Positions 3,001 to 15,000 of a stretch of DNA of 36,386 bases are shown piece after piece. Origin of the DNA: Candidatus Hydrogenedentota bacterium (GTDB taxonomy: Bacteria; Hydrogenedentota; Hydrogenedentia; Hydrogenedentales; SLHB01); assembly GCA_029974275.1 (NCBI GenBank), contig JARKSN010000125.1, positions 1 through 36,386 on the forward strand, read 5' to 3'. Made by a program: the position numbers. Numbering within the stretch: the first letter of the stretch is position 1; every line of letters begins with the position of its first letter.

Positions 3001-6000
3001 GTTGCGTTTCACCCGGCGTACAGCAGGCCGCCTACGCATTGCCCAGGGAGACGACGTCGGTCACGTTGCGCATCGTCTGGCCCCGTCGCGCGGAGGCAAT
3101 AGAGGATCGCTACGCCGTCTTCACGCGCGGCGCCGCTGCGCGGACGGAATCGTGGGGCGACGTTCGGTTAGAGGTTCCGTCCAATGGCCCATTCGATACG
3201 CTGTGTGTCGTCCATTCGGCGCCAGCCGGAACGCCCGCCCCCCCTGCACGCATGCTGGGGGATCCCTTCCGCCTGGATGCGGGAGATGCCCCGATCGATG
3301 CCCCGCTGACCGTATCGACGACCATTCCGCCCCATGCGGAAAAGCCCGCCCGCGTGCATCTGTATCGCGCATCGGAAAAGGGCTGGTCGCGTCTCGACAC
3401 AGAGCAGCAGGGCGGGCGGCTTGTCTGCAAGGTGCGCGAGCTTGGCGTGTTCGCCGCGATGGAGGACATCGAACCGCCGGTTATCGAATGGATCGAGCCA
3501 ACGCCCGGCGGCGCCGAGACATGGCCTCGTCCCGCGATGCGCCTGCGCGTGGCCGACGCCGCCAGCGGCATTGCGGACATCCGCGCGACCTGCCGCGGAC
3601 GATGGTTGCTGATGGATTATGATCCCGAGAAAAACTTGCTTGTTTGGGCGCGCGACGAAGACCTGACAGGACCGTCTGCGCACATCGAGGTTGTCATAGC
3701 GGACCACGCAGGAAACACGGCTTTCCTGCATCAGGAAATCTGCGAGGCAGCTCCGTCCTGCCCTTCCCAGTCGCAATAGCGCACCATCGCCTCCAAACAG
3801 GGAAGGCCGTCGTGATGCCACATCATGGAGGGACAGGCCATGCGGCCCGGACGGCATACCCGGGTTGCGCCCAGCCATGCAAGACGCTCGGCGATGTCCA
3901 TGCTTTCCGGGGGAGCGGCCTCGATCGCAACGTTCTGGAAGTAACCCAGGAACGGACGCAGAAGCGTTTCGATCTCTTCGATCCCGCTGACGGGAACTAT
4001 CGTGATTGCGCGCCCGAGACAGCTCGGCCGCAACGGACGCCGCCGATCGAGGAGAACCAGAAAACGGTCGCCGTCCCTGCTGGAGAAGAGACGCGTCGGC
4101 TCCCCCATCGCGGCAGCGAGTTCGGCGTCGTCCGCCGCTTGGCAATAGCGCACCGATTCGGCGATCGTGGCCGCGCCGCGCGGCAGGACCGTTTCGATGG
4201 CGCGCAAGGCCGTGGTCAGCGCCGCAGCGAGTTGCGCGGCTTCTTCGCCGTCTTTCTCGATCACGAATATCCAATGCGGCGACAGGCACGCCTGCTGATC
4301 GAACATGGCGGCGTCGTAGGCGAGGCGGGCGGCCAGATCGTCCCGGTTCGCGGCATGGACCGCTGCTGCATCGACGACGACGAATCCAAGCTTGTGGCCG
4401 TGCAAGATCAGCCTTGCGCCAGGAGGCACGCGCGAGGAGATGGAAGCGCAGGTTTCCGCGGAACCGAAGGCGATCACGGCGCCGGCTTCTTGAAACGCGG
4501 CGTTTTCGAGGGATTCGTCGCCGCCATGCCAATAGATCACCGCCATGCAGCGGGCCAGCTCGGGAAGACAACGCGCCAGGGATCGTGCATACGCGGCGGC
4601 ATACACGGGCTCGCTGGCCGAGGGCTTGCACAGGATCGGCGATTTCACCAGCAGGGCGCGCATGAACGGCAGATGACTCAACGCAGGGATGTTGCCCGGC
4701 GATAACGCCAGCGTCAGGTCGGGACCGCAAGCCCGCACATAACCCTTCGCTTCGGGCCGCCAGACGAATTTGTCCAACACGGACGGATCGCCGAATTCGT
4801 TCGCGAGCGCTCGCCACATGTCATCCGCCCGCGAAGAATGCTGTTCGATGCGGACGGATTCGCAGACCATTTCACGCGAAAATCCGGTGACCGCGGCCAT
4901 CGCGTCGATGACGGCGTCATAATCGGGAGCCCGGCGCTCCAGCCACTCCTCGGCGGCCATGTCGAGCGCGTGCACGATTTTTTGGATCGGCATGGCGCGC
5001 AGAACCTCGCGCCCCGCTTGCTTTACGTGCCGCGCCAACGCCGCGACGAGTTCCGGTGTCGCGTGCAGTTGCTGCAGCGCGAGAGAGCCGGAGAGCGACG
5101 TCTCGTGTCGTTCAAGTGGATGCGGCGGCGCAAAATCCTCGGGCAGATAAAAGGCGTCGAGCTGGACAGCGGATTTCGGCACGGTTCATCTCCGTTGTTG
5201 GGCGAGTTCGTCCACGGTCACGCTGCATCCGCGCGCTTCAACGGCGTCGGGGCGTCCGAGTGCGTGAAACCCTTCCGGGGTCGTGAAGCCGATATCGTCG
5301 GTCTGCACAGCGAAGGGGTGTCCTCCATTGGCCAGATCGAGATGGCGCAGGATGCCGATGCTTCCGTGGGGCAAAACGCGCAGCGTTTGCGGATCGACCG
5401 CGCGCGTTCGCGTCCACGGCGCGTTTTGCTTTCCTTCGCGGCAAGGGCGGGATTCCGCGTGCGCCGCCACATTGTCGTCGTAGAATTGGCTTGCGAGTTC
5501 GGTCATTCCCAGCAAATTCACGCATCGTTCGGGCGGCGCGTCCAAAAAATGACGGAAGGAATCCAGCATGGCTTCCCGGCGCGTTTCCTCACGCTTTCCC
5601 TTGAATCCTCCAGCGTCCATGACGCGGCTCGCCGGCGGCAGCGGAAACCGTTTACCGCGCGCATGAAAGTCGTCGAACAGACGGACAAAACCCAAGGTCG
5701 CGCCGATCAGCGTCACCGGCGTCCCGGCGACGCATGCCGCATCAAGAGCGCGTTCGAGGCGGTCCGTCTCAAGCCCGGACGGGCCAAGAAAAAAATCGCT
5801 GTCCGCGATCCCGTATCGCCGAACGAGACGTTCCATGCCGTAAACCATAATCATATGCGGGGCCATGGCCGGCGCGGGGGCGAGCACAAAAATCGCGGTC
5901 CGGCGCTGTGCGTGATCGGGGAAAAGATAACGCGTCGCGTTGACGTCGATCGCCGCGTCCATCAGGGCAAGATCGGCGCGGCTGAAACACGAAACGCCTT

Positions 6001-12000: not shown

Positions 12001-15000
12001 CTCGGCGCGGAAGCCGCGCCGCCGGGCCTGGTGCGCCAGCGCAAGCAGCCCCATCGGGGCGTAGGTGATGTTGAGAAACTCGCCAAGGGGGAGGTACTCG
12101 TTGGCGCATTTCGGGACATGGACGAAAAGGCAATCCAATTCGTTGTATTTTCCGCCGGAAAAATCCGTCATGGCCTTCTCTGGAAATCCGCGAGGATCGG
12201 GGCCGCAAGAAATCTGCCGTTGCTGCAAGGATAACGTTGCCGACGAATTCTGTCAATGCGAGACAAGCGCCATCTCCACTTCGCGATCCATGGCGCTCTT
12301 GCTTTCCAGCCAGAACGAGGGGAACGCATGAAGGGCGAGATGATCGACAAGGGCGCTGAGCGAAAAATCGCCGTCGATCCGCAGCCGCGCCAACGCGTCG
12401 GCGTAGAAGATGATTTCCGCGCGACGCACGCCTGGAAACGCGGCGATGCAGTCCTGGACAATGGCGGCGTTTTCGCGGCTGCGGATGTTTGCGATAGAGA
12501 GCGTCACCTGGGCGTCGCGCAGGCCCGCAAGCCCCAGAATCGCCATGGTCGCCGCCTTGGGCGCCAGTTTCAGGCATGCATCAAGCGTCGCTTGACGCAT
12601 GCCTTCTTCGGCGTTGACGCTGTGCACCACGGCATCCACGCTGCGATCGAACAACACCGCGGCATCGGCGCCGCGCAGCAGCCGCGCCGATAGCCGAACG
12701 CTGCACGCCTTTGCGTTCGTCGGGCCCGGATCGATCGCGCTGTAGACCGAGGCGATCAGCGCCATGTCGGCCAGGTTTTCCAAAGCCAGCCGCGCCGCGA
12801 GAGGCGTCTCGGCCACAAGCCGCGCCGCAAGTTCCTCCGAGGAGTAGTGCGCGGCCAGTTCGCGCATGCCGCAAACGTCCATGTGACGGTCCCGCAGGGA
12901 ATGGCACAACGCATCCGCCGCCCAATTTTCCGGAGACGCGACACGAACAGGGGCCTCGTCCGTCTTTTCCCCCATCAACACGACCAGTCGCGGTCGGCGC
13001 GTGAGGGTTCTGGCGAGAATCGCCGCCGTCTCGGCGCAGAAAAGGTCTTTGTTCAGAAAGAGATCGACAGAGACCTCGGTCGCATCCGCGCTGGTATCGT
13101 GGCGCAACAGGTTGTAGGAGAGCACATACCGGCCCGGTGCGTGAATCATGGAGCCGAAAGGGGTCAGGTCGCGCGTGGCGGCTATCTCCTCGAGCGCCTG
13201 TGCGATGGCGTTGCGCTCGGCATTCTCGATGGCCGCGACGCGCCCCGCCGCCCCTATGCCCATCGCCACGCCGTTCGCCTGGATGCGCAACGGCCCCTCG
13301 ACGGCAACGTCTACCGCGCCCGGCGCGGCCACTGCGGCGCCGCATGCCGCGATCGCCGTCAACGCAACCAGCCCCCACGGCGCAGCCCTTCTTCGAATGC
13401 GGCTGACGGCGCCGCGTGGCGCCGTGACGTTCGCGACGCGCAGCCTCAATTGCGTCCGCGCGCGATCAGCACCATGCGCAGCAGCTGCATGGCCGCCATG
13501 GCTGCGGACGCCACGTAGGTCATCGCGGCGGCGGTCAGAACCTTTTTGGCGCCCCGCAGCTCTTCCGCGTCCAGGTATCCGCCGTTGGCCAAGGCGGCCA
13601 GGGCACGACGGCTGGCATTGAATTCGACCGGCAACGTGACCACCGTGAACAGGACCGCAAACGTGAACAGCCAAATGCCGACCTGCATGAGAAACTGCGT
13701 CGCCGGGAAAATCATCCCCACAAAAAACAGCGGAAACGCCAAGGTCGATCCGATGCTCGACAACGGGTACATCATGCCCCGCAGCGACATGGGGAGGTAC
13801 AGACGGGCGTGTTGCACGGCATGGCCGACTTCGTGCGCGGCAATGCCCAAAGCGGCGATGCTCGATCCGTGGTAAATGTCCTCCGAAAGACGCAACGTCC
13901 GATCGCGCGGATCGTAGTGATCCGTCAATTGCCCCGGAATGGCCTCAAGACCGCACGATCCTTCCGGCCGGTTGTCCGACATCACCAACGGTATCTGCGA
14001 ATCCCGCAAAATAAGCCGCGCAACGTCTGCGCCCGTCAGCCCGCTCCGGGTCGAAATGCGGGAATATTTGGCGTAGGCGGACTTGACCTTGAATTGGGCC
14101 CACAGCGCCAGCAACAGCGCGGGAATCACCAACACGTCGTAAGGGGTGAAATACAGCATTTACGCATCTCCTTCCGCCGCCCGCGAAACGGGCGGACGCA
14201 TCGCACATTTTCCGTTGAACACCGCTCCTTCCTCTATAACAATGGAGCGGGCCCGAATATCGCCCGTGATCTTCCCCGTAGAAACGAGGTGCAGCTTGCC
14301 CGAGGTTGACACGTTTCCAAAAACCTGGCCCGCCAAAGTCATCCGCCGGCCCGCCAGCGCGTCCGCGTTGATGCGGCCCGTCCGGCTAAGGTCCAAGTCT
14401 TCCGAACACTCCATGCGGCCCTCCACGAGCCCATCGACCTTGCACGATGTCGCGCGCACATTGCCGCTCACCAAGGCGCTTGGCCCGAGAAAGAGGACCC
14501 CGTCGACGATGACATCGCCGTCCACCCGTCCGCATATCTCCGTCTCGGACCCGCCGGTCAACGATCCTTCAATGATGACGCCCTCCGGAATGACCATGCG
14601 TTGCGCTTTGACGTTCTTGGCGCGCCGCATGGCGATATCGTCCACAGTGACATGGGGTTTCCCGGCGGATTCAGCGGCGACATCGTGGCGGCGATTGCTG
14701 CCCCGGCTGGACTGCAGCATCTCCTGGAAACTCTGGTTGATGCGCGCAAACCACGGGCCTCGCTGCGACGCGCGGTTCAGTTCCTCGAACGCATCCAGCG
14801 CATTCGGTTCCGGCCGGCTGTCCGTCTTGTCTGGTTCCTGCGTCATGGCTATACGTACCCCAACCGGTTGGCGATGTCCGCTACGCACGCGGAAATCTTG
14901 AGTTTCGGGTGGCTGACAATGAACGGCGTCCCCGAGTTTACCGCCTCCGGAACGCACTTATCAAAGTACAAGTACCCGAGATTGTTCACCTCGACCATCA

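Follow-up and report, generated by a model that had tools for sequence, protein, structure and literature searches.

The window analysed here, a stretch of 36,386 nucleotides from a Candidatus Hydrogenedentota genome (contig JARKSN010000125.1), raises the question of what is made by genes that join a leucine-type condensation and isomerisation module to a cobalamin radical-SAM enzyme, a flavoprotein and a LuxE/LuxC pair. The reading preferred here, and held to be fairly likely, is that seven genes acquired together by horizontal transfer form an operon for a small metabolite not described before, made via an alkylmalate, methylation and LuxE/LuxC reduction. The operon probably builds a small branched hydroxy-acid, methylates it and turns one of its acid groups into an aldehyde. 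No description of the seven-gene operon came up in literature searches. Of the interpretation put forward in the initial annotation, the mobile cassette and its general chemistry are retained, whereas the homocitrate synthase/homoaconitase label, the tricarboxylic product, the eighth gene and the rarity figures are not.

Layout and boundaries of the operon

The eight minus-strand reading frames described initially are all present with their stated families, as evident from Pfam and NCBIfam profile matches, and the unit is corrected from eight genes to seven, spanning 3731..12171 with a promoter-like site reaching to 12256 (Table 1). The seven genes are closely packed, with intergenic gaps of 6, 45, -1, -25, -11 and 3 nt, the start of the small-subunit gene and the stop of the large-subunit gene overlapping by 1 nt. 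The radical-SAM gene begins with ATG at 12171, in a frame open from 12228. The promoter-like site lies about 55 nt ahead of this ATG, across the stop codon with which the upstream lipoprotein gene ends, and is the top one of four sites found, against 2.4 expected from shuffles.

Table 1. Coordinates of the operon, its genes and the adjoining features in the window
Feature	Position	Strand	Basis
Seven-gene unit	12171..3731	-	B12 radical-SAM, LeuA/NifV-type synthase, LeuC/LeuD-type dehydratase large and small subunits, TrxR-fold flavoprotein, LuxE-like, LuxC-like
Gene 1, cobalamin-binding radical-SAM enzyme, 566 aa	10471..12171	-	Pfam B12-binding 4.3e-11, Radical_SAM 1.4e-15
Gene 2, LeuA/CimA/NifV-type 2-oxoacid:acetyl-CoA synthase, 397 aa	9271..10464	-	HMGL-like 1.5e-67, HCS_D2 1.2e-16
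Gene 3, LeuC/HacA-type dehydratase large subunit, 408 aa	7999..9225	-	Aconitase 2.6e-70
Gene 4, LeuD-type small subunit, 167 aa	7496..7999	-	LEUD_arch 102.4 bits (cut-off 108.95); Aconitase_C
Gene 5, TrxR-fold FAD protein, 409 aa	6291..7520	-	Pyr_redox_2; Foldseek
Gene 6, LuxE-like adenylating acyl-protein synthetase, 371 aa	5186..6301	-	PF04443 3.8e-13
Gene 7, LuxC-like thioester reductase, 483 aa	3731..5182	-	PF05893 2.2e-78
Promoter-like site	12228..12256	-	TTGACA, 17 nt spacer, TATCCT; 10/12 consensus match only
398-aa lipoprotein-like protein, outside cassette	12253..13449	-	Lipobox-like IAAC, residues 33-36

The cassette holds no LeuB-type dehydrogenase, transporter or regulator gene, no luxA, luxB or luxD gene occurs among the 13 window ORFs scanned, and there is no Rfam match in the window or in the 20 cassette loci scanned. 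The lack of an isopropylmalate-dehydrogenase-type gene, pointed out initially, is borne out for the window as well as the flanks that were annotated. The cassette enzymes come in addition to paralogues elsewhere in the genome, where HMGL-like matches lie at seven places, aconitase matches at two and Iso_dh genes at three.

The 398-aa protein, formerly counted as the eighth member, is a native envelope lipoprotein and not part of the cassette. Its homologues occur in 20/20 relatives and in none of the 80 related loci. Its gene comes last in a native MinD-like/bactofilin/Zn_peptidase_2 cluster, and this upstream order is kept, with the cassette absent, in all five relatives fetched. A profile search gave no family match, and the nearest ESM Atlas clusters are hypothetical proteins without names, with FlgT_N, LpoB or CsgG in 12-33% of members.

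Encoded enzymes and the proposed pathway

The synthase contains the LREGEQ and HCH motifs and is devoid of the LeuA regulatory domain; all NCBIfam equivalogs stay under cut-off, including nifV (1e-103), and the best PDB match is 6ktq (1.8e-65). It has Ile46, and the cassette homologues Met, Val or Phe, at the column occupied by His in the solved homocitrate synthase 6ktq and by Phe in LeuA (3rmj). The large subunit of the dehydratase keeps Cys289, Cys349 and Cys352 and scores 370.7 bits against PRK00402 (cut-off 385). The small subunit has the GSSRE motif and, when aligned with 1v7l, 3vba and 2pkp, a substrate loop YFSL (residues 25-28) as compared to YLRT in homoaconitase (2pkp) and YLVY in isopropylmalate isomerase (3vba); the form F/Y-F/Y-S-L is kept in most cassette copies. 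The column of the 6ktq His and the small-subunit loop are taken here to be the positions that recognise the extra carboxylate. Since they are hydrophobic or serine in the cassette, the sequences suggest that the earlier label of homocitrate synthase/homoaconitase, and the tricarboxylic product that went with it, is probably wrong, a reading of substrate class that draws on two or three positions with presumed roles.

The LuxE-like protein carries a TSGTTG motif and a C-terminal Cys359 in GCS, and its family profile matches 7xc6_E (1.3e-35) with the C-terminal GCSL aligned. The LuxC-like protein has Cys299 in DQQAC, which is aligned in its match to 7xc6_A (1.2e-19). Both cysteines align with the thioester-carrying cysteines of 7XC6, whose roles are given in PMC12041015, along with a mechanism running from an adenylate through a LuxE-Cys thioester and a LuxC-Cys thioester to the aldehyde. 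Related LuxE-LuxC pairs are accompanied by an SDR or aminotransferase, which fits an acid-to-aldehyde module reused across contexts.

The radical-SAM protein displays the CxxxCxxC motif as CHAECVYC (residues 244-251). It matches TIGR04190 at 3.5e-55 (187.6 bits), missing the cut-off of 500 by a wide margin, and its remaining weak NCBIfam matches are mostly methyltransferases. It is probably a C-methyltransferase, although methylation is not the only type of reaction that B12 radical-SAM enzymes carry out. The predicted model of the flavoprotein (pLDDT 89.9) finds TrxR-like proteins as its best Foldseek matches (E ~1e-19 to 1e-20). Its second dinucleotide site is degenerate, about 70 residues at the C-terminus form an additional domain, and CxxC is absent from the whole protein, which has no clear NAD(P)H site. 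The family comprises 104 representatives at E<=1e-30. The two genes go together: a radical-SAM gene is present wherever the flavoprotein could be assessed (22/22; 19 in the locus, 3 elsewhere in the genome), lies in none of the five flavoprotein-less loci, and has no orthologue at E<=1e-20 in either of the two flavoprotein-less genomes searched. Most likely, the two proteins form a methylation module.

We infer the substrate class, the order of steps, the choice of carboxylate, the methyl transfer and the product as follows. The synthase would form a 2-alkylmalate by condensation of acetyl-CoA and a 2-oxoacid of non-acidic (hydrophobic or small) type, and the LeuCD-type dehydratase would convert this via an alkylmaleate to a 3-alkylmalate. 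The radical-SAM enzyme would methylate the substrate or an intermediate at an unactivated carbon, with the flavoprotein as its putative partner in electron supply or as a dehydrogenase. LuxE would adenylate one carboxylate and hold the thioester on its C-terminal cysteine, and LuxC would receive the acyl group for an NAD(P)H-dependent reduction. The resulting aldehyde may close into a lactol or butenolide, or may undergo reduction or amination by enzymes of the host. The series proposed initially, of Claisen condensation, isomerisation, probable methylation, and carboxylate activation and reduction to an aldehyde, agrees with the intact catalytic motifs of all seven proteins.

Distribution of the cassette and alternative readings

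A profile scan of species genomes for LuxE relatives gave at least 593 confirmed stretches, from which 80 loci were fetched, most of them from metagenome-assembled genomes with taxonomic labels that may be incorrect. The rarity suggested by the two loci reported initially is hence an artefact of a scan that reached close relatives only. The Desulfobacteraceae locus (L006, 11,951 bp) was reproduced with the same order and near-identical percentages, and the 2.6-kb Myxococcota locus corresponds to L030. The cassette-type form occurs in 33/80 loci and the LuxE-LuxC pair alone in 47/80. The seven-gene order is identical in 19 loci, those in which radical-SAM orthologues (35-55% identity) are the first gene. 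In L003 and L004 a class I/II aminotransferase gene precedes the cassette; the L004 copy is on the opposite strand and about 2 kb off. Three genomes carry the cassette as two sub-operons, the locus being without radical-SAM and synthase genes while radical SAM-synthase(-large subunit) lie elsewhere (52-53% identity); the split point varies, as the large subunit accompanies either half.

In a quick LuxE tree with an arbitrary root, where the branch of the window is long (1.21), the 33 rows of cassette LuxEs, the window among them, make up one set with 100% SH-aLRT, separate from the 46 LuxE-LuxC-only rows. The LuxE profile matches 1/135 phylum genomes, which confirms the earlier count of none among the 134 others. 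The accompanying count of 13 genomes with LuxC was not reproduced: 62/134 others (63/135 with G000) give only PF05893 matches that are weak, partial and no higher than 41 bits, as compared to 264.7 for the cassette LuxC, with a profile that also matches 7/14 control genomes. The cassette is scattered among uncultured bacteria of at least four differently labelled phyla and absent from the 134 other phylum genomes; this patchiness and the single LuxE clade support the earlier view of a self-contained, horizontally moving cassette.

It is possible, though rather unlikely, that the cassette instead serves to make a non-standard amino acid by chain elongation. A LeuB-type dehydrogenase of the host and an aminotransferase would join the synthase and dehydratase in adding one carbon to a (methylated, possibly aromatic) 2-oxoacid, and LuxE/LuxC would then reduce the carboxylate of the amino acid to an amino-aldehyde or cyclic imine. 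The three Iso_dh genes elsewhere in the genome and the hydrophobic substrate-loop residues are in line with this, as is a HisC-family aminotransferase gene directly before the synthase in three Blastocatellia/Chloracidobacterium loci (TIGR01141 320-322 bits, cut-off 276.55), where LuxC is followed by flavin monooxygenase-like and Methyltransf_2 genes, of types that often act in tailoring aromatic compounds. However, neither an aminotransferase nor a LeuB-type gene is present in the window cassette or was found in the annotated flanks of related loci. The HisC-family gene occurs in only 3/33 cassette-type loci and, with a score typical of genuine hisC, may be a neighbour with a housekeeping role.

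That the cassette salvages or repairs a vitamin-type compound, like related LuxE-LuxC-SDR operons, rather than making a new metabolite de novo, is improbable. It draws on a TPP riboswitch (79.8 bits, L045:8340-8449) ahead of permease-LuxE-LuxC-SDR in Neobacillus cucumis and an NMT1/THI5-type ABC transporter after LuxC in L061. But the LuxEs concerned belong to the separate 46-row clade, at 32-35% identity to that of the window, no Rfam match occurs in the window or the 20 cassette loci scanned, the cassette has no transporter, and its complete condensation and isomerisation module points to synthesis.

More improbable still is an alternative pantoate route from pyruvate through citramalate, 3-methylmalate, 3,3-dimethylmalate and aldopantoate, in which radical-SAM methylation would give 3,3-dimethylmalate and LuxE/LuxC reduction aldopantoate. 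The fit is chemical only, covering every carbon and most enzymes; its intermediates are those known from bacterial pantothenate degradation. Against it, the window genome has panB (PF02548), as do 30/30 relatives and 4/5 other cassette-bearing genomes, so there is no complementarity, and variants without the radical-SAM gene could not form the gem-dimethyl group.

A lysine-type alpha-aminoadipate route, with homocitrate synthase, homoaconitase and a LuxE/LuxC-type aminoadipate reductase, has very little likelihood: the synthase does match homocitrate synthases best in NCBIfam and PDB, and the logic parallels the fungal pathway as outlined in PMC12041015, but all equivalog cut-offs are missed, the His and YLRT residues are replaced, homoisocitrate dehydrogenase and aminotransferase are absent from the cassette, and the radical-SAM enzyme and flavoprotein are left without a role. 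That two unrelated modules, radical SAM-synthase-dehydratase and flavoprotein-LuxE-LuxC, merely lie side by side is scarcely credible: three genomes split the cassette at roughly that junction and LuxE-LuxC pairs stand alone in many loci, but overlapping or near-abutting genes span the junction, the split genomes keep both halves at a varying split point, and the cassette LuxEs form one clade tracking the dehydratase genes.

Comparison with known systems

The two-domain FAD fold of the flavoprotein is that of low-molecular-weight thioredoxin reductases, among them NAD(P)H-independent forms (3cty and the ferredoxin-dependent 6gna/6gnd), with Foldseek E 5.5e-20. It keeps their FAD motifs but differs in the missing CxxC, the unconserved second dinucleotide motif and the C-terminal domain, and scores 50.8 bits against TIGR01292 (cut-off 343). 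The Bacillaceae permease-LuxE-LuxC-SDR operons with a TPP riboswitch (L045, L076, L061) have the LuxE/LuxC family in common with the cassette and probably the same acid-to-aldehyde step. They differ in LuxE clade, in possessing riboswitch, transporter and SDR, and in lacking synthase, dehydratase, radical-SAM and flavoprotein genes, and are probably salvage rather than synthetic operons.

The phosphinothricin pathway, which we take to run through the synthase Pms, the isomerase Pmi and the B12 radical-SAM methylase PhpK, resembles the cassette as read here, since a cobalamin radical-SAM methyltransferase works in one specialised pathway with an aconitase-like isomerase and an enzyme akin to homocitrate synthase. 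The P-methyltransferase models of the PhpK and Sden_1168 families match the radical-SAM protein weakly, PhpK negligibly (E 2.9e-4), no PEP mutase or phosphonate gene is found among the 13 window ORFs scanned, and that pathway has no counterpart of LuxE/LuxC or the flavoprotein.

With LuxC-LuxE of Photobacterium phosphoreum (7XC6), the cassette pair has in common the Pfam families, both thioester cysteines and the adenylation motif, and the same mechanism is expected. It is distant from the luminous equivalog models (103 bits vs 750 and 57 vs 550), and its substrate would be a short hydroxy-diacid derivative rather than a fatty acid. The leucine/isoleucine elongation module (LeuA or CimA, LeuCD, LeuB) shares the synthase and two-subunit dehydratase families, with metal-binding, Fe-S and catalytic serine motifs kept and the substrate positions likewise hydrophobic as in 3rmj and 3vba. 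The cassette differs in falling below the equivalog cut-offs, in having neither regulatory domain nor LeuB-type dehydrogenase, in a small-subunit loop of its own type, and in being coupled to B12 radical-SAM, flavoprotein and LuxE/LuxC genes, while the housekeeping copies lie elsewhere in the genome.

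Extent of the operon and its native surroundings

Pfam and NCBIfam scans confirmed the gene families named in the initial annotation, and all seven cassette genes lie on the minus strand. Successive genes, counted from radical SAM to luxC, are separated by 6, 45, -1, -25, -11 and 3 nt, and a gap of 81 nt precedes the radical-SAM gene. The promoter-like site of the table falls in this 81-nt gap and is to be read as a consensus match only, since the search yielded four such sites where 2.4 are expected. Owing to its high GC content (0.57-0.66), the window holds many spurious ORFs. 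The catalytic motifs are intact in all seven cassette proteins, as evident from CHAECVYC in the radical-SAM protein, LREGEQ and HCH in the synthase, three cysteines in the large subunit, GSSRE in the small subunit, GAGPAG in the flavoprotein, TSGTTG and a C-terminal GCS in LuxE, and DQQAC in LuxC. The 3′ end of luxC overlaps that of a convergent M23 peptidase ORF (1755..3779) by 49 nt (3731-3779), and no terminator-like site was reported at 3731-3779.

Features of the cassette and its upstream border in the window, in order of transcription
Feature	Position	Strand	Remarks
398-aa protein, outside the cassette	13449..12253	-	no family match
Promoter-like site	12256-12228	-	TTGACA, 17 nt, TATCCT; best match of the region
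B12-binding radical SAM	12171..10471	-	566 aa; TIGR04190 187.6 bits vs cut-off 500
HMGL-like + HCS_D2 synthase	10464..9271	-	397 aa; nifV model (TIGR02660) 347.5 bits vs cut-off 462.9
Aconitase-family large subunit	9225..7999	-	408 aa; Aconitase 2.6e-70
Aconitase-family small subunit	7999..7496	-	167 aa; LEUD_arch 102.4 bits vs cut-off 108.95
Pyr_redox_2 flavoprotein	7520..6291	-	409 aa; TIGR01292 50.8 bits vs cut-off 343.45
LuxE-like protein (P0001)	6301..5186	-	371 aa; PF04443 3.8e-13
LuxC-like protein	5182..3731	-	483 aa; PF05893 2.2e-78

The unit had been described as eight genes, the 398-aa protein being the eighth. This gene is rejected as a cassette member, since no homologue of its product was detected by tblastn (1e-8) in 80 fetched loci encoding LuxE relatives, and since it stands in a native gene order in relatives of the window genome, a homologue being encoded in 20 of 20 relatives. 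The run MinD-like protein, bactofilin, Zn_peptidase_2 and lipoprotein occurs in all five relatives from which the region was fetched (the peptidase being unmatched in one) and matches the order at 15784..12253 (-) in the window; the 20 kb fetched from each relative is free of cassette genes. The identity to the relatives is 47-69% for the MinD-like protein, bactofilin and peptidase and 24-28% for the lipoprotein. This synteny with relatives shows the contig to be native and rules out mis-binning. What stands of the proposed unit is the seven genes at 3731..12171, extending to 12256 with the promoter-like site.

The 398-aa protein displays a lipobox-like IAAC at residues 33-36, and its nearest ESM Atlas clusters are unnamed hypotheticals in which 12-33% of the members carry FlgT_N, LpoB or CsgG, an association that serves as a lead only. 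The order of the four-gene cluster at 12253-15784 (-), encoding a MinD/ParA-like ATPase, bactofilin, Zn_peptidase_2 and the lipoprotein-like protein, is kept in relatives of several families, and the cluster may serve the cell envelope or the cytoskeleton. Elsewhere in the window, three ORFs at ~33400-36300 (+) resemble, as judged by eye from their translations, an arsenic-resistance set of a low-molecular-weight phosphatase-type ArsC, a cysteine-rich SAM methyltransferase and an ACR3-type permease.

Predicted activities of the encoded enzymes

LuxE and LuxC form a textbook pair. The window LuxC belongs to the Pfam LuxC family (PF05893, 264.3 bits vs a gathering score of 21) and the window LuxE to the Pfam LuxE family (PF04443, 49.5 vs 24.9 bits), and both miss the NCBIfam equivalogs, LCFA_red_LuxC (103.2 vs 750 bits) and LCFA_lig_LuxE (57.3 vs 550 bits). 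When aligned to the LuxC chain of Photobacterium phosphoreum (7xc6_A, 1.2e-19), the window DQQAC, containing Cys299, falls opposite DQQAC, and the LuxE family profile matches the corresponding LuxE chain (7xc6_E, 1.3e-35) with the C-terminal GCSL on GCSL; in the window LuxE this cysteine is Cys359. According to a 2025 review (PMC12041015), these two cysteines carry the acyl thioester in LuxC/LuxE. Since both align with 7xc6, the reduction of an acid to an aldehyde without CoA or carrier protein is the best-supported step of the cassette. Neither luciferase- nor LuxD-like genes were found among the 13 neighbouring window ORFs scanned.

LuxE-LuxC pairs outside the cassette adjoin a short-chain dehydrogenase in Bacillaceae, in Roseovarius and, by clustering, in several Binatia loci, and a class III aminotransferase in two loci (L054 and L064). 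In Neobacillus cucumis, a TPP riboswitch (RF00059, 79.8 bits; L045:8340-8449, +) lies directly 5′ of genes for Xan_ur_permease, LuxE, LuxC and a short-chain dehydrogenase, and in L061 an NMT1/THI5-type ABC transporter follows LuxC; the clade of these two loci may salvage a thiamine-related acid. With a short-chain dehydrogenase in some contexts, an aminotransferase in others and a TPP riboswitch in front of one, the LuxE-LuxC pair looks like a reusable acid-to-aldehyde module.

The synthase and dehydratase had been taken for a homocitrate synthase and a homoaconitase leading to a tricarboxylic product, an assignment that is probably wrong. The synthase carries HMGL-like and HCS_D2 domains; it misses both homocitrate synthase equivalogs, TIGR02660 (table) and TIGR02146 (267.5 vs 413.55 bits), and the dehydratase subunits likewise miss those of homoaconitase (HacA_Meth, 268.9 vs 550 bits; HacB2_Meth, 83 vs 230 bits). 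In the synthase alignment, AGIP of the window (Ile46) stands where the homocitrate synthase 6ktq has AGHP and the LeuA 3rmj has AGFA, and Met predominates here in 25 aligned cassette homologues, the remainder having Val, Phe or Thr. The histidine, His72 of the Thermus homocitrate synthase, binds the C5 (distal) carboxylate of 2-oxoglutarate. At the small-subunit loop, YFSL of the window corresponds to YLRT of the homoaconitase 2pkp, to YLVY of the isopropylmalate/citramalate isomerase 3vba and to YNLT of 1v7l; the form F/Y-F/Y-S-L is kept in most cassette copies, including those lacking the radical-SAM gene. The arginine-containing YLRT loop is taken here to be the substrate-specificity position of the homoaconitase small subunit. 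Because the synthase histidine and the small-subunit YLRT are both replaced, a non-acidic 2-oxoacid is the likely substrate of the synthase.

The two subunits qualify as a LeuCD-type dehydratase (Aconitase, 238 bits; Aconitase_C, 44 bits). Cys289, Cys349 and Cys352 of the large subunit are presumably the Fe-S cluster ligands, and GSSRE at residues 61-65 of the small subunit is taken to be the serine motif of aconitase-family dehydratases. HMGL-like matches occur at seven places elsewhere in the window genome, aconitase-family matches at two, and there are three Iso_dh genes; the cassette synthase and dehydratase are extra paralogues.

The radical-SAM protein is assignable to the cobalamin-dependent (class B) radical-SAM enzymes (N-terminal B12-binding domain PF02310, 43.2 bits; radical-SAM domain PF04055, 58.3 bits; CxxxCxxC as CHAECVYC) and falls outside the named family TIGR04190. 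As most of its weak NCBIfam matches are C- or P-methyltransferases, it is by default a predicted methyltransferase.

The flavoprotein model (pLDDT 89.9) displays a two-domain FAD fold, and its best Foldseek matches are low-molecular-weight thioredoxin reductases (E ~1e-19 to 1e-20), with ferredoxin-dependent forms among them (3cty and 6gna/6gnd listed). The redox motif of a thioredoxin reductase, CxxC, is absent from the whole sequence, the second dinucleotide site, at which a thioredoxin reductase would bind NADPH, shows no conservation among 23-26 homologues, TIGR01292 is missed, and an extra C-terminal domain is present. The flavoprotein forms a small family of its own: of 1.84 billion representatives, 104 match at E<=1e-30, ~60 of these being full length. 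A radical-SAM gene is present in 22 of the 22 assessable cases with the flavoprotein, a count that leaves out six loci cut by contig ends; five loci lack both genes, and no radical-SAM orthologue (E<=1e-20) was found in the two genomes of flavoprotein-less loci that were searched. The two genes are read as one add-on module, in which the flavoprotein would be an electron supplier or a dehydrogenase.

Recurrence, variation and probable acquisition of the cassette

The cassette had been reported from "2 loci", a rarity that came from a scan finding close relatives only. Of the candidates scored in a search with the LuxE-like protein, 148 reached E<=1e-5; among the matches listed, all are of LuxE length, and those with a named source come from diverse MAGs. 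Profile A1, built from 27 LuxE-like proteins and scanned on one genome per species, gave at least 593 confirmed stretches, of which 80 loci were kept and typed for cassette content by tblastn of the window proteins. All seven genes occur in the same order in 19 of the 80 (L001-L007, L009-L011, L013, L015, L016, L018-L020, L022, L024, L038). Six would fit the cassette but are truncated where their contig stops (L008, L012, L027, L029, L030, L051), three show the 3′ part only despite upstream DNA (L014, L017, L023), and five encode the synthase, both dehydratase subunits, LuxE and LuxC without the radical-SAM protein and flavoprotein (L021, L026, L028, L032, L034). Thus 33 loci are of cassette type; the other 47 hold LuxE, with or without LuxC, and no other cassette gene.

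The genomes of L014, L017 and L023 encode a radical-SAM protein, 52-53% identical to that of the window, and a synthase elsewhere, which indicates that the seven genes stay together in the genome even when split. The large subunit then follows the synthase in the L023 genome at least, the other two stretches ending at or just past the synthase. By record titles, in which MAG labels may be wrong, cassette-type loci belong to Thermodesulfobacteriota (Syntrophaceae, Syntrophorhabdus, Desulfobacterales), some MAGs labelled Pseudomonadota, Myxococcota and Acidobacteriota (Blastocatellia, Chloracidobacterium).

A Peptidase_U32-like gene lies directly 3′ of LuxC in 10 of the 10 Thermodesulfobacteriota-type loci extending past luxC (L001-L006, L009-L012), for example at L004:12425-13729 and as two tandem copies in L006 (8151-9323 and 9333-10514), the Desulfobacteraceae locus reported earlier. 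This family includes oxygen-independent hydroxylases, and the tandem copies are reminiscent of the UbiU/UbiV pair. The flavoprotein-less loci all encode an SBP_bac_8 protein (5/5), with a HisC-type aminotransferase in three, a CmlS/QhpG-like flavin enzyme in two, FAD_binding_3 in one and Methyltransf_2 in two. Myxococcota-type loci are bordered by unrelated housekeeping genes, and lineage-specific add-ons are the only flanks that recur. From this variation of the add-ons among loci, the constant core reduces to the synthase, dehydratase, LuxE and LuxC, to which methylation and hydroxylation seem to be optional tailoring steps.

Two side observations concern the flanks. The halogenase-like flavin enzymes 3′ of LuxC at L026:14363-16147 and L034:12804-14553 are ~80% identical. 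The loci are labelled Blastocatellia and delta proteobacterium, respectively, and similarity between their core genes is much lower, which points to a recent exchange or to MAGs with wrong labels. A TOTE conflict-system primase/helicase (AEP-TOTE, 1.2e-87; L007:872-3310, -) lies just upstream of the cassette in L007.

Within the phylum, the claim that LuxE is confined to the window genome held, as its profile matches one of 135 genomes, the window genome itself; a single-protein LuxE search of 30 relatives gave one match at E 9.7e-4. PF05893 matches 62 of the 134 other genomes (63/135 with the window genome), all weakly and partially, at <=41 bits as compared to 264.7 bits for the window LuxC. 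Since it also matches in seven of 14 control genomes, these are likely generic aldehyde-dehydrogenase cross-hits. In a quick maximum-likelihood LuxE tree of 79 rows (midpoint root; L012 and L052 left out), the 33 cassette rows form one set with 100% SH-aLRT, apart from the 46 LuxE-LuxC-only rows, with the window LuxE on a long branch (1.21). No tRNA was found in the window, no integrase among its 13 ORFs scanned, no GC break at the cassette, and no flanking repeats other than short GC-rich chance repeats at 3000-13000. The scattered occurrence of cassette-type loci agrees with the mobile cassette envisaged earlier. DNA near-identical to window 3731-12300 (0.86-0.94 of sampled words) is present in three wastewater/anaerobic-digester metagenome runs from two studies, one of which may be the source sample.

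Candidate product and comparison with known systems

The general chemistry first outlined for the cassette is likewise upheld, the catalytic motifs being intact: a mechanism of condensation, isomerisation, methylation and conversion of an acid to an aldehyde is rather probable. A bypass to pantoate was considered as its purpose and is not supported. Such a route fits the chemistry, and the genomes speak against it: panB occurs in five of the six cassette genomes tested, namely the window genome (and 30 of its 30 relatives) and four of the five others. The window and 20 cassette loci gave no Rfam match at gathering score that would mark a riboswitch or leader, the sole match being the TPP riboswitch of the non-cassette locus L045.

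It is suggested tentatively, and with considerable doubt, that the operon encodes an entire, portable pathway leading to undescribed small methyl-branched hydroxy-aldehydes or lactol/butenolide/pantolactone-like rings, acting as a signal or cofactor precursor. If true, this would be a new small-metabolite pathway, in which the acid reduced by LuxE/LuxC-type enzymes, free of CoA and carrier, is a short polar diacid and no longer a fatty acid, widening their substrate range beyond fatty acids, and a B12 radical-SAM enzyme methylates an alkylmalate-type intermediate of primary metabolism; both would be new. The partner of the latter would be a dedicated NAD(P)H-independent flavoprotein of thioredoxin reductase fold, which would make the pairing of a cobalamin radical-SAM enzyme with such a partner tractable for study. 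The scaffold would further be decorated in Thermodesulfobacteriota by a candidate anaerobic hydroxylase of U32 type, and by a flavin monooxygenase and a Methyltransf_2 enzyme in Acidobacteriota.

LuxE/LuxC-type acid reductases are of interest as CoA-free biocatalysts, and the seven genes, at 8.5 kb, are compact enough for direct heterologous expression. Several bacterial phyla share this conserved and mobile cassette, among them abundant uncultured groups of sediment, soil and wastewater. A full-text literature search, judged from listings and abstracts, found no description of the seven-gene set. As compared to known systems, each enzyme type is well known, and it is their combination in the cassette that is new.
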